Positions 22,317 to 30,512 of a DNA stretch of 64,000 bases are shown here, piece by piece. Under the pieces are notes generated by a model. That model did not search any database. It was not told where the DNA came from and was given only the letters and a program-made list of their open reading frames with translations. Each line of letters begins with the position of its first letter. Position 1 is the stretch's first letter. The DNA lies in the NCBI GenBank assembly GCA_965116495.1, contig OZ220696.1, positions 2,400,001-2,464,000 on the forward strand, read 5' to 3'. The translations under genes and the position numbers were made by a program. The DNA is from Gammaproteobacteria bacterium. GTDB taxonomy: Bacteria > Pseudomonadota > Gammaproteobacteria > Eutrophobiales > Eutrophobiaceae.

Positions 22317-22604
22317 TCATTCAAAGTCATCAGGCCATTTTCTGGCTGAATGATAGACGCGCAGGATTTCCAATGCGTTTTTCTTAACTTGGTAAGGGAC
22401 AATGAAAGGAGCGCCCGAAAGCACCAGTCCCCGAGTTCCGGGAACCCTGCCAACTCTCCCAAGATTGGGATGTTCGCTGAGGTGATGAATTTCGCTGTAT
22501 ATCACATCCAGTGTTTTATCGGCGGCCAGTGGATTATCCGCAAGGATGTAATCGAAGATTTCAATTAAATCCTGTTCTGCCTCAGGCGATATCCTTATCT
22601 TCAT
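22317..22604 (-). CDS. RelE/ParE-family toxin
   Basis: MKIRISPEAEQDLIEIFDYI..DNP.AA, HPNLGR.GRVPGTR and EILRVYHSAR.W motifs. Confidence 0.9.
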   Translation of the reverse strand: MKIRISPEAEQDLIEIFDYILADNPLAADKTLDVIYSEIHHLSEHPNLGRVGRVPGTRGLVLSGAPFIVPYQVKKNALEILRVYHSARKWPDDFE

Positions 22605-22614
22605 TTGCTCCTGA

Positions 22615-22857
22615 CTATTGCTTGTGTCGGATTTTGGCTCGCAGCTCCTCGACGACTGCCTCAAAATCTTTGCCGGTGCCTCTTGCAAGTGTTAATTGCG
22701 CCTGCTCAATACCTAGCCTGTGTTGATCAGTTTGCTCTGAAATATACTGCTTTAATGCAACTTCAATTACCTGATCCCTTGGTTTATTCATCACCTTTGC
22801 AAGCCGATCCAACCCGGTCGAAACCTCATCGGTCGTATGGATGTTGATAGTTGACAC
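22615..22857 (-). CDS. RHH/CopG-type antitoxin
   Basis: 80 aa with TINIH...LDRLAK...R..VIE.AL..Y; directly upstream of the toxin. Confidence 0.8.
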   Translation of the reverse strand: MSTINIHTTDEVSTGLDRLAKVMNKPRDQVIEVALKQYISEQTDQHRLGIEQAQLTLARGTGKDFEAVVEELRAKIRHKQ

Positions 22858-23005
22858 CTTTCATTCTTCTAATTGATTGCAGTGCAATTATCTCCCTCCT
22901 ATGTCAGAGCTGTCAAGAGGATAATCGGGGTTGATTGATACACTCCTTGCATGTCCGGTTAAGGGCTGGTTCGTACCGATAGAATCTACTGGCACGGGTA
23001 GTGTC

Positions 23006-23020
23006 GTATTTTGAAAATAC
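23006..23020. promoter_or_regulatory. Palindrome upstream of vapBC, candidate autoregulatory operator
   Basis: GTATTTT-G-AAAATAC in the intergenic region between the divergent TA pairs. Confidence 0.4.
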
Positions 23021-23076
23021 ACGATATAAAATGCCTATTATGCTATCATTAATACTTCTCTGATTGAGGATGATAC

Positions 23077-23322
23077 ATGCAATTATCGTTAACCAACCTG
23101 CGCTCGGGCACCCATGAGCTACGACAGGCTATTGAACGCGGAGAAGTAGTTGAACTGACCTTTCACGGCAAAGTCATCGGGCAGGTCAATCCTGCCAGAA
23201 TGGAGAATTATAAAATTGATGAGCGAATCGTAAATGCCTATTTCAACCGAAGGGAGGGGGATGACCCTTATGCCGCAATAGAGCAACTCAAACAGGCAAG
23301 AAGAAGACGTGGTACCAAATGA
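23077..23322 (+). CDS. vapB: Phd/YefM-like antitoxin
   Basis: SLTNLR...AIERGEVVELT.HGK pattern; overlaps the PIN toxin start by 4 bp. Confidence 0.75.
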   Translation: MQLSLTNLRSGTHELRQAIERGEVVELTFHGKVIGQVNPARMENYKIDERIVNAYFNRREGDDPYAAIEQLKQARRRRGTK

Positions 23323-23702
23323 TATTTGATACGGACATCTTCATTTTTGCGGAAAGAGGTGACAAAAAAGCGCAGGAAGCTATTCTTGGCGAGAAGGATA
23401 TAAGAATATCAGTGGTTTCTCGTATGGAACTTGTGCAGGGCTGCCGGAATAAAAAAGAACTCGCTGACCTAGAGAATTTTTTACAGACGATAAAATGCCG
23501 CATTATTCACTGTTCCAATGAAATCAGTATCACTGCCGACGTTTTAATCCGGCAATATGCGCTCAGTAATAACCTCAGCCTGGGCGATGCGTTTATTGCA
23601 GCAACAGCGCTTCATCATCAGGAGACCTTGCATACGGCCAATTACAAGGATTTCCGTTTTATTGACGGACTGACCGTTAAGCGTTTCAGACCGTCATTGT
23701 AG
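23319..23702 (+). CDS. vapC: PIN-domain ribonuclease toxin
   Basis: IFDTDIFI, MELVQG, DAFIAATAL and TAN.KDF motifs. Confidence 0.92.
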   Translation: MIFDTDIFIFAERGDKKAQEAILGEKDIRISVVSRMELVQGCRNKKELADLENFLQTIKCRIIHCSNEISITADVLIRQYALSNNLSLGDAFIAATALHHQETLHTANYKDFRFIDGLTVKRFRPSL

Positions 23703-27496: not shown

Positions 27497-27629
27497 TCTG
27501 CCCTCCACATATATATCGCATTCTGAGTGATCATTGTACTGTTTGCCAAAAGTTCCTGACATACTCATATAGGGTTACATCCATGGGCCTGCCTTAATGA
27601 TATTATCGGGAATTATATACTTAATTGTA

Positions 27630-28832
27630 CTAGGCCGCCAGTTTAGCAACCAGGTATTCCTGCCCCCGGTCTCCCTTCACGGAATTGCAGTACCCGCAAA
27701 GTAACTGCAAGTTGTAGAGGTGATCAGTTCCGCCCTTGCTTCGTGGGATGATATGGTCAACTGTAAAATTCTGCATCAGGAAATGCTCCTTACAGCCGTT
27801 ACAGTGGCCGCCCTGTTCGCCGTAAAGCGCCTTTTTGTTATCAGCGTGGTTGTACTTCTTCAGTGGCGCAATGTCGGTGCGCTGGGGGATGTCGGTGCGG
27901 ACGATGCCCTGGTAGAACATGCCCAGTTCCTTGTCCATGCGCAACTTGACCAATTCGGCGGCCTTCGGGGATATGTCAATACCGGCCCACTCCCTGCCCT
28001 CTATCTCCGCCGCTATGCAGGCTGTGGCACAGCCACAGAAGGGGTCAAGGATAATTCCGTCTTCTGGACAGGAAGCTTTTATGACGCGTTGTAACAGCTT
28101 TAATGGTTTTTGAGTGGGGTAGCCTACGCGTTCTGTGGCGTTTGCATTAAGATAGGATATTTCCCACACATCGCGCATGGCTTTCATTCCGCTATTATCA
28201 ACATATTCTTGCTGGAGTGCGCCGTCTTCCGCAATGTGACTCGCTCTGTTTTTGCCCTTATGTCGATGCTGTCCTTTCGGGCTATGGGGTTCAAGCAGCT
28301 GCTTAAATACAGCATCGGTTGAGCGCGCATACATCAACAAAACATCGTGCATTCTTTGAAAGTGCTTGGTTGCCCCTGTCCATCTCTGATAACTCCATAT
28401 AATTTCATTCCTGAACATCTTACGCCCAAACACCGCATCCATAACCAGCTTGAGATAGTGCGACATGGTAGGATCACAGTGCAGGTAAATACTGCCTGTG
28501 TCCTTCAATATCCGTTTCATTTCAAGCAGCCTTGCGGCCATGTAAATGAGATAGGACTTGTCGCTTTTCGTCATGGCGGCATGGATAACCTTGTTCAGGG
28601 TCGGGTGCTTGGCTTCTATCAGGTCAAGCCACGCGATATCCAGATCGTCCAAGTTCCAGGTGTCTTTGAACTCTGCGCCGGCGGCCTGGGAGCCGATAGG
28701 CGCGGCATAGTTGGTTTTGGAATTAAATGGCGGGTCTAGGTAAATCAGATCAACGCTGTGATCGTTCATGCCCCGCAGGACAGGGAGATTGTCGGCAGTC
28801 CAGATGGTCTGGTTTGCCCAGTTAGCGGACAC
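27630..28832 (-). CDS. Site-specific DNA methyltransferase (N6/N4 class) fused to a C-terminal HNH endonuclease domain
   Basis: DLIYLDPPF, YPTQKP..LL and LDPFCGCAT motifs; C-terminal CNGC...DHIIPRSKGG....NLQLLC..CN..KG. The stop codon lies in the left TIR. Confidence 0.92.
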   Translation of the reverse strand: MSANWANQTIWTADNLPVLRGMNDHSVDLIYLDPPFNSKTNYAAPIGSQAAGAEFKDTWNLDDLDIAWLDLIEAKHPTLNKVIHAAMTKSDKSYLIYMAARLLEMKRILKDTGSIYLHCDPTMSHYLKLVMDAVFGRKMFRNEIIWSYQRWTGATKHFQRMHDVLLMYARSTDAVFKQLLEPHSPKGQHRHKGKNRASHIAEDGALQQEYVDNSGMKAMRDVWEISYLNANATERVGYPTQKPLKLLQRVIKASCPEDGIILDPFCGCATACIAAEIEGREWAGIDISPKAAELVKLRMDKELGMFYQGIVRTDIPQRTDIAPLKKYNHADNKKALYGEQGGHCNGCKEHFLMQNFTVDHIIPRSKGGTDHLYNLQLLCGYCNSVKGDRGQEYLVAKLAA

Positions 28833-28871
28833 GATAATGTCCGCTTTAAGGTCGGGCTGTAGGGTCGACTC

Positions 28872-29030
28872 CTAATCGGACTGGCGGACTGGCGGACTGG
28901 CGGACTGGCGGACTGGCCGCTTTTTCACTTTATCACGTTTTTGTTTTACCGTCCCGTCTCCTGCTTTCACCACCCGCTTTATTGCTTCTTTAAACGTCAT
29001 GTTCAACGGCTCTATGATGCCCCGCTTCAT
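28872..29030 (-). CDS. 52-aa leader ORF containing an 8-bp tandem repeat
   Basis: ATG overlaps the transposase TGA (TGATG): MKRGIIEPLNMTFKEAIKRVVK...RPVRQSASPPVRQSD*. Same frame as the MTase. Confidence 0.55.
   Translation of the reverse strand: MKRGIIEPLNMTFKEAIKRVVKAGDGTVKQKRDKVKKRPVRQSASPPVRQSD
28878..28917. repeat. Simple sequence repeat (GGACTGGC)5
   Basis: Five perfect 8-mers, 45 bp upstream of the MTase start. Confidence 0.95.
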
Positions 29031-29947
29031 CATGCGACCTCCCGGATTAGTTCGTTGTATGGAAGCCTTTTACCGATGCCCCCTTTGATCACTTTGCCGA
29101 TTGCGGCGGCGCCTGTCAAGCACCGATTGTTATGGCGATGCACATACTCGGTGACGTAGCGATGAGTATGCTTCATGCTCCACCAGTGATGCGTACCGAT
29201 ATAACCGCGCTTGACCAATGCCCAGAAAGACTCGATCCCGTTTGTGTTAACCTGCGCGTTCACATACTCGCCTGCGCTGTGCCTCACCGTCCCATGTTGG
29301 TAGAACAGGCTGTGCAGGCCGGCATAGCCTCTATGCTCATCCGTATAGACCTGCGAGCCAATCTCAACGTGCTGGTGGATAGCGCCGTGCAGAGTCTCTT
29401 TGTCGGTGCGCCGGATCGGGAAGGCCCGGACTTCGCCACCGCGTTGCAGGATGCCTAATACCGGCTGTTTGCCAACCGTGCCGCGCCCCGCCTTCATACG
29501 GTGCTGTACGTGTTTGTTGCCTTCCTTGCCGCCCAGGTACGTCTCATCCACCTCAACCTCACCCGTCAACGGGTTAATCCCGTCCGTGCAGGCTTCCCGG
29601 ATGCGATTTGACAGATACCAGGCTGTCTTTTGCGTAACGCCCAGGTTCTTTGCAAACTGAACGCTTGATATCCCCTTGCGGGCAGTGGTCATTATGTTAA
29701 TTGCCAGTAACCATGTCTGCAATGGCAGGCGGGAGCTTTCCATGATCATGCCGGTACGGACACTGAAACGCTCCTTGCACTCGGCGCACTTGTAACCCAT
29801 GCCGCCCTTGATCTCATATACCTTGTCATGTCCACAATGCGGGCAGGTAATACCATCAGACCAACGCTGTTCGATGATGAACTGCTTGCAGGACTCCTCA
29901 GTCGGAAACTGCTGGTAAAATTCGGGAATGCTCATGTAGTCTTTCAT
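29030..29947 (-). CDS. IS1595-family transposase
   Basis: Zn ribbon CPHCG...YKCAEC, EVEVDETYLGG, YTDE, HSAGEYV and NTNGIESFWA..KR motifs. Confidence 0.95.
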   Translation of the reverse strand: MKDYMSIPEFYQQFPTEESCKQFIIEQRWSDGITCPHCGHDKVYEIKGGMGYKCAECKERFSVRTGMIMESSRLPLQTWLLAINIMTTARKGISSVQFAKNLGVTQKTAWYLSNRIREACTDGINPLTGEVEVDETYLGGKEGNKHVQHRMKAGRGTVGKQPVLGILQRGGEVRAFPIRRTDKETLHGAIHQHVEIGSQVYTDEHRGYAGLHSLFYQHGTVRHSAGEYVNAQVNTNGIESFWALVKRGYIGTHHWWSMKHTHRYVTEYVHRHNNRCLTGAAAIGKVIKGGIGKRLPYNELIREVA

Positions 29948-30089
29948 CTGTTTTTCCTTGCAAATCAATTAACTGATACTTAATTGTACCAATAATTGAG
30001 CAAGTGTCAACAGTTTTTTACAACTTTTTTCGGATTATTTCAGGGTGGAAATAGCGCGCGGGTATACGGTAGGATCGGAGAGTTGTTAG

Positions 30090-30235
30090 AGTGGGGACGG
30101 TGCGGAAACACCGTCCCTCAATTTCCACCGCGTAAGCGGAAGTGTCTGGCCGGACAGGTAAAGTATAACCTCTCCTGTCCTGCCGTCAAGTTCGTTCTGT
30201 TTACGCCTTCATGCCGCGTATGCGGCAGGAGGATT
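30090..30235 (+). ncRNA. Candidate structured 5' leader RNA inside the IS1595 element
   Basis: Successive hairpins GGGACGGTG-CGGAAA-CACCGTCCC, CCGC-GTAA-GCGG, GGACAGG...CCTGTCC and TGCCGC-GTAT-GCGGCA; no family recognised. Confidence 0.4.
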
Positions 30236-30239
30236 GATC

Positions 30240-30299
30240 ATGGCCAATCGCCGAAAGACGGTGCCGGTCAAAGCGCACAAGCGCAGACCACCGAAGTAA
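30240..30299 (+). CDS. 19-aa basic peptide MANRRKTVPVKAHKRRPPK
   Basis: Strong AGGAGGA RBS just upstream; followed by an intrinsic terminator. Confidence 0.55.
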   Translation: MANRRKTVPVKAHKRRPPK

Positions 30300-30306
30300 C
30301 CAGTAC

Positions 30307-30334
30307 GGCCCCGTACTCAGTGCGGGGTTTTTCG
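30307..30334 (+). terminator. Intrinsic terminator just inside the right TIR
   Basis: CCCCGTAC-TCA-GTGCGGGG stem followed by TTTTT. Confidence 0.7.
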
Positions 30335-30512
30335 TATAGTACAATTAGGTATATAATTCCCATATTATCTGTATGTCATGATTGCCAGATTCCTTCCGAT
30401 GGTAATAGAGACACTTGGCAAGAAAAGTCGAAAGTGATTGCTGCGGCTGGTAAATTTGTGGAAGGGTAGACATAATTTCTTTGTTTACGGGCATATATCG
30501 GACATCCATAAT

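Follow-up and report, generated by a model that had tools for sequence, protein, structure and literature searches.

Results

An IS1595-family element carries a methyltransferase-HNH gene behind a leader with an 8-mer repeat

The window, by which we mean the whole stretch of 64,000 nucleotides analysed, contains an intact IS1595-family element (27608-30361) in which a transposase, a small leader ORF, an (GCCAGTCC)5 array and a beta-class methyltransferase gene with an HNH domain (MTase-HNH) follow one another in this order (Table 1). It is the one full copy of the element in the 4.34-Mb genome. The transposase is of the IS1595 DDE type with an N-terminal zinc ribbon (PF12762, PF12760) and scores 190 bits against NF033547, whose cutoff is 75; judged from sequence, its true start is likely ATG 29947, because the homologue at the sister locus L118 begins at the matching Met. 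The transposase promoter overlaps an internal 14-nt copy of the terminal repeat, a layout also seen in the sister element L174, and we infer that a single transcript runs from it through transposase, leader and MTase-HNH; no RNA data set was found among the listed holders of the junction sequence.

The cargo product matches PF01555 (1e-42) and PF01844 (2.5e-13), and the nearest folds to its predicted structure are M.BceJIV and M.RsrI. Its YLDPPF (residues 31-36) precedes DPFCG (263-267), motifs that we take to be the catalytic (DPPF-type) and SAM-binding ones, respectively. The named records of homologues are metagenome-assembled genomes, for example of Poribacteria and Arenicellales, and records of this type are probably largely sponge-associated.

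Table 1. Features of the element and of the leader-MTase junction, in window positions
Feature	Position	Strand	Remark
Target-site duplication ATATTATC, 8 bp, copy 1	27600..27607	.	identical to 30362-30369
Terminal inverted repeat, cargo end	27608..27632	.	25 nt, 96% complementary to 30337-30361; overlaps MTase-HNH stop
Beta-class amino-MTase with C-terminal HNH domain	27630..28832	-	400 aa, GTG start; frame intact
Hairpin over weak SD-like sequence and GTG	28824..28845	-	predicted; no homologous hairpin found
TAA closing the ancestral read-through frame	28846..28848	-	reached with 1, 4 or 7 units
Exit motif NNTTAG(G)	28871..28877	-	'LG' in read-through frame, TAG stop in present frame
Leader ORF of a small-ORF family with slippery tail	28872..29033	-	52-53 aa
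(GCCAGTCC)5 simple sequence repeat	28878..28917	-	five perfect units
TGnTAnnnT, extended -10-like element	28927..28935	-	9 nt before repeat; possible internal promoter
IS1595-family (ISXO2-like) transposase	29030..29968	-	PF12762 3.9e-41, PF12760
Sigma70-like promoter TTGACA-16-TACAAT with TG	29976..30010	-	11/12 consensus matches; strong, near-consensus
Terminal inverted repeat, transposase end	30337..30361	.	25 nt, pairs with cargo-end arm
Target-site duplication ATATTATC, 8 bp, copy 2	30362..30369	.	identical to copy 1

The transposase end of the element also holds a 19-aa basic ORF (30240-30299, plus strand) and a terminator-like hairpin (30307-30329), and a 135-nt copy of this region, 86% identical, lies at G000:C1:1590160-1590294 near another end-like motif. 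Elsewhere in the window (22317-23702), two adjacent gene pairs look toxin-antitoxin-like when their translations are judged by eye; presumably they resemble the RelE/ParE-like and PIN-like systems.

The number of repeat units sets where the leader stops

An earlier, sequence-only reading of this DNA described a 52-aa leader ORF coupled to the transposase stop and holding five repeat units, and our analysis confirms it. Translation could begin at ATG 29033 (53 aa, ATGA overlap with the transposase stop) or at ATG 29030 (52 aa, TGATG overlap), the latter being better spaced, at 5 nt by our script's count, from a strong SD-like GGGAGGT (29043-29037, duplex of about -11 kcal/mol). With both strands considered, the 4.34-Mb genome has no run of at least two units besides the GCCAGTCC run at 28917-28878. 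With a threshold of at least three units, taken from the available part of Atack et al. (2018; PMC5909438), it is a non-triplet repeat at the 5' end of the MTase gene, ending 45 nt before the GTG.

Other repeats were observed in the same genome outside the window. At G000:C1:680698, (GACCGCA)21 lies just after the ATG of an ORF located upstream of one for an RTX-like repeat protein, and this is likely a further contingency locus. At G000:C1:1881303-1881375 (minus strand), nine 8-nt units are followed in the same frame by a small protein that is signal-peptide-like, and in-gene phase variation is likely. About a dozen sites across the genome have short arrays in which a GAATTA(C/G)-type heptamer is present 4-9 times.

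When the unit number was varied in silico, 2, 5 or 8 units ended the leader at TAG 28874-28872, 1, 4 or 7 units at TAA 28848-28846, and 0, 3 or 6 units at TGA 28768-28766, overlapping Met 28769. This reproduces the stops calculated by hand earlier for 5, 4 and 3 or 6 units, among them the 4-unit stop at the base of the hairpin, and it bears out the statement that slippage cannot fuse the leader to the MTase, since all three exit frames stop first.

At five units, the observed state, the leader shares the MTase frame and a single TAG intervenes 14 codons ahead of the GTG. Rare read-through of this UAG could yield a low level of fusion protein at five units and none at other counts, an explanation that we consider very unlikely: the same position is a stop in the 5-unit frame at three of the four sister loci described below, where it is merely off frame, no tRNA with a CUA anticodon is present among the 45 tRNA genes, which led us to reject amber suppression, the MTase gene itself ends in TAG, and an open run of 14 codons is unremarkable.

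A predicted hairpin covers the GTG start codon

The stem-loop at 28845-28824, proposed earlier to bury the MTase GTG, does fold in this way in our predictions. A 41-nt window around it, picked post hoc, has a folding energy of -16.8 kcal/mol (z -3.6, 0 of 200 shuffles as good). Over a 40-nt start window the value is -15.2 kcal/mol here against -10.9 to -1.0 in 31 homologues, making this the strongest start-codon hairpin among 32 MTase-HNH family start regions; equally strong folding was found at 19 of 800 crudely called ORF starts of the genome, so the hairpin is less exceptional genome-wide. None of the 31 family start regions has a homologous hairpin, and the search for homologues of the spacer and hairpin in 22 congeners gave none, the best matches covering the MTase coding start alone and the rest being at chance level. 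The hairpin and spacer being without a homologue in these two sets, they provide no covariation support for a coupling of MTase translation to the leader.

A leader ribosome is predicted to reach the hairpin at 4 or 6 units and not at 5. In the opening-cost model, the GTG site takes 16-18 kcal/mol to open, and only a ribosome at the 4-unit stop reduces this to 4-5 kcal/mol, a drop accounted for in part by the footprint overlapping the GTG site itself; at the 5-unit stop the cost is almost unchanged. The modelled prediction is therefore an off state at five units and a partly open one at four. The constrained model leaves the GTG mostly re-paired downstream in an alternative fold, with an unpaired probability of 0.01-0.16. 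The geometry of stop, hairpin and GTG is thus suggestive, and as modelled it may be read either way: stable structure directly 3' of a stop inhibits re-initiation according to the available part of Chemla et al. (2020; PMC7518266), which would predict insulation of the MTase at four units.

The MTase family starts at the GTG, not at the internal methionine

The sequence-only reading had the leader pass through the hairpin with 3 or 6 units and stop in an overlap with Met 28769, which raises re-initiation there as a possible productive state. The ATGA overlap at this position is exact and the modelled opening cost at Met 28769 falls to about 0 in that state, as such a route would have it. Met 28769 is residue 22 of the MTase, however, and homologues start at the position equivalent to the GTG, which has a weak SD (-3.2 kcal/mol). 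Of 120 listed homologues, 97 fit a strict N-terminal pattern placed ahead of the internal Met, and most of these 97 start 3-4 residues before this pattern, like the GTG here; the remaining 23 comprise some pattern variants and some proteins called from the internal Met region. In an alignment of 73 full-length sequences, residues N4, D14 and G21 never vary; this alignment (A2, 73 of the 120 proteins) favours N-terminal conservation by leaving out the proteins called from the internal Met. A product lacking residues 1-21 would lose these three residues together with a predicted strand (9-12) and helix (15-21; pLDDT about 90), and alignments to solved Mod enzymes begin at residues 7-11. Judged from these sequences, the GTG is the start of the MTase family. 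The N-terminal conservation and the predicted strand and helix indicate that the 3/6-unit product would be truncated and probably inactive, and of all the explanations weighed here we give a functional ON state at Met 28769 the slightest chance.

The leader-repeat module recurs at sister loci, mostly open into the cargo

The GCCAGTCC module was found at four further loci in 3 of 22 congeners, with 3, 12, 12 and 23 units. An A-rich leader end, the GCCAGTCC array and the NNTTA exit motif, the last common to all five loci in their alignment, are kept throughout, and the sister cargoes are one restriction-modification methylase, one decayed MTase and two surface proteins. At three of the four sister loci, a leader that leaves the repeat in exit frame 2 continues into the cargo; the same frame stops at TAA 28848 here, which places the ancestral read-through frame exactly at the 4-unit stop.

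In congener G005, the module lies in a sister element with inverted ends and a transposase 69% identical to ours. Four units at this locus (L118) would fuse the leader to the N-terminus of an MTase whose similarity to solved MTases, from their residue 7-8 on, begins ahead of any start codon of the gene itself, and which is followed by an MvaI/BcnI nuclease; the repeat lies within the MTase reading frame, as in phasevarions, at L118 and outside it at the locus studied here. G005 carries an MTase-HNH gene as well, at a separate locus. A hairpin at L118:1665-1720, which may be a by-product of conserved codons, begins at the present off-frame stop and covers the first internal ATG of that MTase. 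At the G022 locus, frame 2 after the module opens into a decayed gene of the MTase-HNH family, and the spacer weakly resembles ours (28 of 2000 shuffles as good). G020 has the module before two paralogues (L117, L125) whose products have Pro/Glu repeats and N-termini resembling signal peptides: frame 2 reads through at one paralogue, whereas the second paralogue is entered in frame 1, its frame 2, that of the present 12 units, stopping just past the ATG. At L125 a transposase-like insertion, which we take to be ISAs1-like, splits the leader and yet 23 units are kept; an intact leader protein, P0125, has 2 units against those 23.

Leader proteins from other assemblies imply 2, 3, 6 and 9 units, and others have a degenerate, non-slippery tail. 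An MTase start of the form LG-x-I-H/Y-x-GD can be read off frame in two of three tested tails, compared with 185 of 20,000 random tails. Most module copies (P0125, P0126, P0129, P0132, L116, L118 and L125) exit in frame 1, not frame 0, an excess that could be a gene-calling bias or a preferred off state. Beyond the genus, no copy was found in 126 genomes of the order or in 400 other genomes of the class, and a single match on a viral contig has an unrelated context. No fused leader-cargo protein was seen among 24 longer candidates, a weak test, nor among 10 short matches of the 13 in a representative search, a check that took in these ten and set aside the 3 long multi-stretch matches. The read-through frames into the sister cargoes indicate, on sequence grounds, that the ordinary function of the module is classic in-frame frameshifting, and the junction in our element may then be a remnant that was rewired, not a device built for the purpose.

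TGnTAnnnT is the consensus of an extended -10 element, and this pattern stands 8-9 nt ahead of the repeat at all five module loci despite amino-acid changes, as a perfect TGGTATAAT at both G020 loci. An internal promoter here would put the repeat in a 5' untranslated leader and let it tune expression through length or structure, as might fit the 23 units retained behind the insertion-split leader of L125 and as has a precedent in Haemophilus influenzae hmw1A (PMC12721329, in the part available). We nonetheless regard such transcript-level tuning as improbable. A unit of 8, not a multiple of 3, and an exit frame conserved into cargo genes without their own start are signatures of translation, a -35/-10 scan reported no promoter pair at 28927..28935, and a strong promoter exists upstream.

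A mean of five units wherever the locus could be measured

Misassembly at the repeat junction was considered and ruled out: unitigs of runs X1-X3 match 28300-28906 and 28888-29500 without differences, and a unitig of X5, from a second study, matches 28685-28906 likewise, although X1-X4 may include the source sample of the assembly. Logan unitigs break at the repeat into 33-nt and 35-nt pieces that an n-unit allele crosses n-3 and n-4 times, respectively, so that their depth ratio gives the number of units. This yielded mean values of 4.96, 5.00, 5.03 and 4.93 units in X1-X4, four runs from three samples of one study. Flank-based estimates were 4.81-5.23, and no 3-unit junction was listed among the unitigs of X1-X4; these figures are means from contigs and would not reveal variants that are rare or balanced. 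A 98%-identical leader, P0121, on a different 4.62-Mb contig also ends as five units would. Invariance of the repeat in reads and homologues had been named as evidence against a switch, and the outcome is divided: the locus itself shows no variation (mean 5.0 in 4 of 4 runs), whereas the array varies among homologues (3, 12, 12 and 23 units).

Repeats near the start are frequent across the MTase-HNH family

Repeats no more than 120 nt from the conserved N-terminus were found at 12 of 53 non-redundant close MTase-HNH family loci. The controls had them in 9 of 3253 tiles and at 3 of 490 starts of other ORFs; the P values of this enrichment are overstated since related family loci are not independent. 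The 53 loci remain from 114 after removal of duplicates, the window locus and loci with no N-terminal match or with less than 120 nt upstream; 35 more distant MTases, also left out, had no repeat in any case (0/35). Ten of the 12 repeats are poly-G or poly-C, one is (GCAA)6 and one (GCCAGCCC)7. There is neither a start nor a stop between repeat and gene body at any of the 12 loci, and the nearest upstream start is in frame at four. The comparison with the controls points to selection for switchable MTase-HNH expression as a general feature of the family. Unlike these 12, the window locus has a stop as well as a separate start codon after the repeat.

Discussion

Our analysis suggests, tentatively, that the leader-repeat locus is a rewired switch acting through the position of the leader stop, off at five units and on at four or seven. 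The IS1595 transposon would have inherited a leader with an 8-mer frameshift module, and its junction, likely remodelled by a cargo swap or a small indel with a hairpin acquired or inherited locally, would no longer permit fusion. Translation of the leader would proceed from its strong SD, and the hairpin would silence the weak-SD GTG. At five units, ribosomes would come off 26 nt ahead of the hairpin without contacting it, keeping MTase-HNH off. At four or seven units they would end at the hairpin foot, melt its 5' arm and re-initiate 14 nt further on, turning MTase-HNH on, or less off, and at three or six units they would pass through the hairpin, giving at best the truncated Met 28769 protein or some leakage from the GTG. 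Because every frame stops before the MTase and its start is predicted to be locked in the hairpin, the gene is likely off at the present five units. The parts of the earlier coupling proposal that held up are a length-variable module, the exclusion of fusion and a 4-unit stop at the hairpin foot; variation at the locus itself and conservation of the hairpin did not. The coupling reading is in keeping with an intact MTase-HNH gene and perfect target duplications of the element, and has against it that the ordinary in-gene design is found at every one of the 12 family loci with a repeat.

It is quite possible, and close behind the coupling switch in our judgement, that the junction is a decoupled relic whose fusion frame was closed by a cargo swap or an indel. 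The repeat would then be irrelevant and MTase-HNH silent or weakly constitutive from its GTG, the hairpin being a chance structure or simply keeping a nuclease gene quiet. A unit number that is constant wherever measurable and an unconserved hairpin would both be expected of such a relic, as would inhibition of re-initiation by structure after stops (PMC7518266, in the part available). The materials of a swap are also at hand, in the decayed MTase-HNH-family gene of G022, open in frame 2 behind a weakly similar spacer, and in the separate module and MTase-HNH loci of G005, as a swap would need. It is harder to reconcile with a relic that the strongest start hairpin among the 32 family regions has the end of the ancestral ON frame exactly at its foot. 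That gene and repeat are undecayed also speaks against it, a point weakened since the element looks recent. Promoter or untranslated-region tuning, read-through of the TAG and the Met 28769 route are all less likely than these two explanations.

If the coupling switch is real, phase variation can act via a separate leader ORF, and surveys limited to repeats inside genes or promoters would miss such switches. Even if the junction is a relic, the comparison of loci shows that a mobile element delivers a ready-made repeat switch, reused by a congener before surface-protein genes. More broadly, the MTase-HNH family is widespread in uncultured marine bacteria, and the several unrelated kinds of repeat at the 5' end of its genes extend to these organisms a mechanism described mostly from pathogens. 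The most inclusive proposal, that a transposon-spread module gates any gene placed behind it, methylase or surface protein, and here evolved from an in-frame fusion switch into a three-state coupling switch that leaves the protein N-terminus untouched, we consider unlikely as a whole. Word searches of the open-access literature returned no title on a repeat-in-leader coupling switch or on the MTase-HNH family, which does not imply absence from print.

Passenger genes are carried by the transporter IS (tIS) class of the IS1595 family. The present element resembles them in its ISXO2-like transposase, inverted ends of about 25 bp, 8-bp target duplication and passenger gene, and differs in the slippery leader module between transposase and passenger, a module that in one congener also precedes chromosomal surface-protein genes. 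In plasmid rep genes (repY-repZ of ColIb-P9, repB-repA of pMU720, tap-repA of R1), antisense RNA controls a translational coupling that depends on a leader peptide, and the IncI/IncB plasmids have pseudoknots as a further element. Common to these and to our locus is a short upstream ORF, here with its own putative ribosome-binding site (GGGAGGT), whose stop would decide the use of a structure-masked start; in our case the proposed input is instead heritable repeat slippage.

The 4-unit state, with a stable hairpin immediately 3' of the stop, resembles the termination structures in the available part of Chemla et al. (2020; PMC7518266), although their effect is inhibition, the opposite of the proposed switch, and our hairpin also holds the downstream start. 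The hmw1A 5'-UTR of H. influenzae, as presented in the accessible text of PMC12721329, contains an (ATCTTTC)n repeat that itself forms a hairpin on which RNase III acts. There, as proposed here, a repeat outside the regulated coding frame has a post-transcriptional effect via RNA structure, but the repeat in our element is translated and separate from the hairpin. With the phasevarion mod methyltransferases, as far as the available part of Atack et al. (2018; PMC5909438) describes them, our locus shares a non-triplet repeat near the 5' end of a beta-class MTase, and the G005 sister element and the 12 family loci have exactly their in-gene layout; unlike these, our repeat lies in a separate upstream ORF where no count restores a fusion, and the MTase-HNH is a single polypeptide encoded by an IS1595 element rather than a Type III Mod. 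The leader-repeat locus is a candidate form of repeat-mediated phase variation that falls outside the in-gene phasevarion class, because the repeat is not within the MTase reading frame, and what it adds is the non-fusion junction and the reuse of the module.
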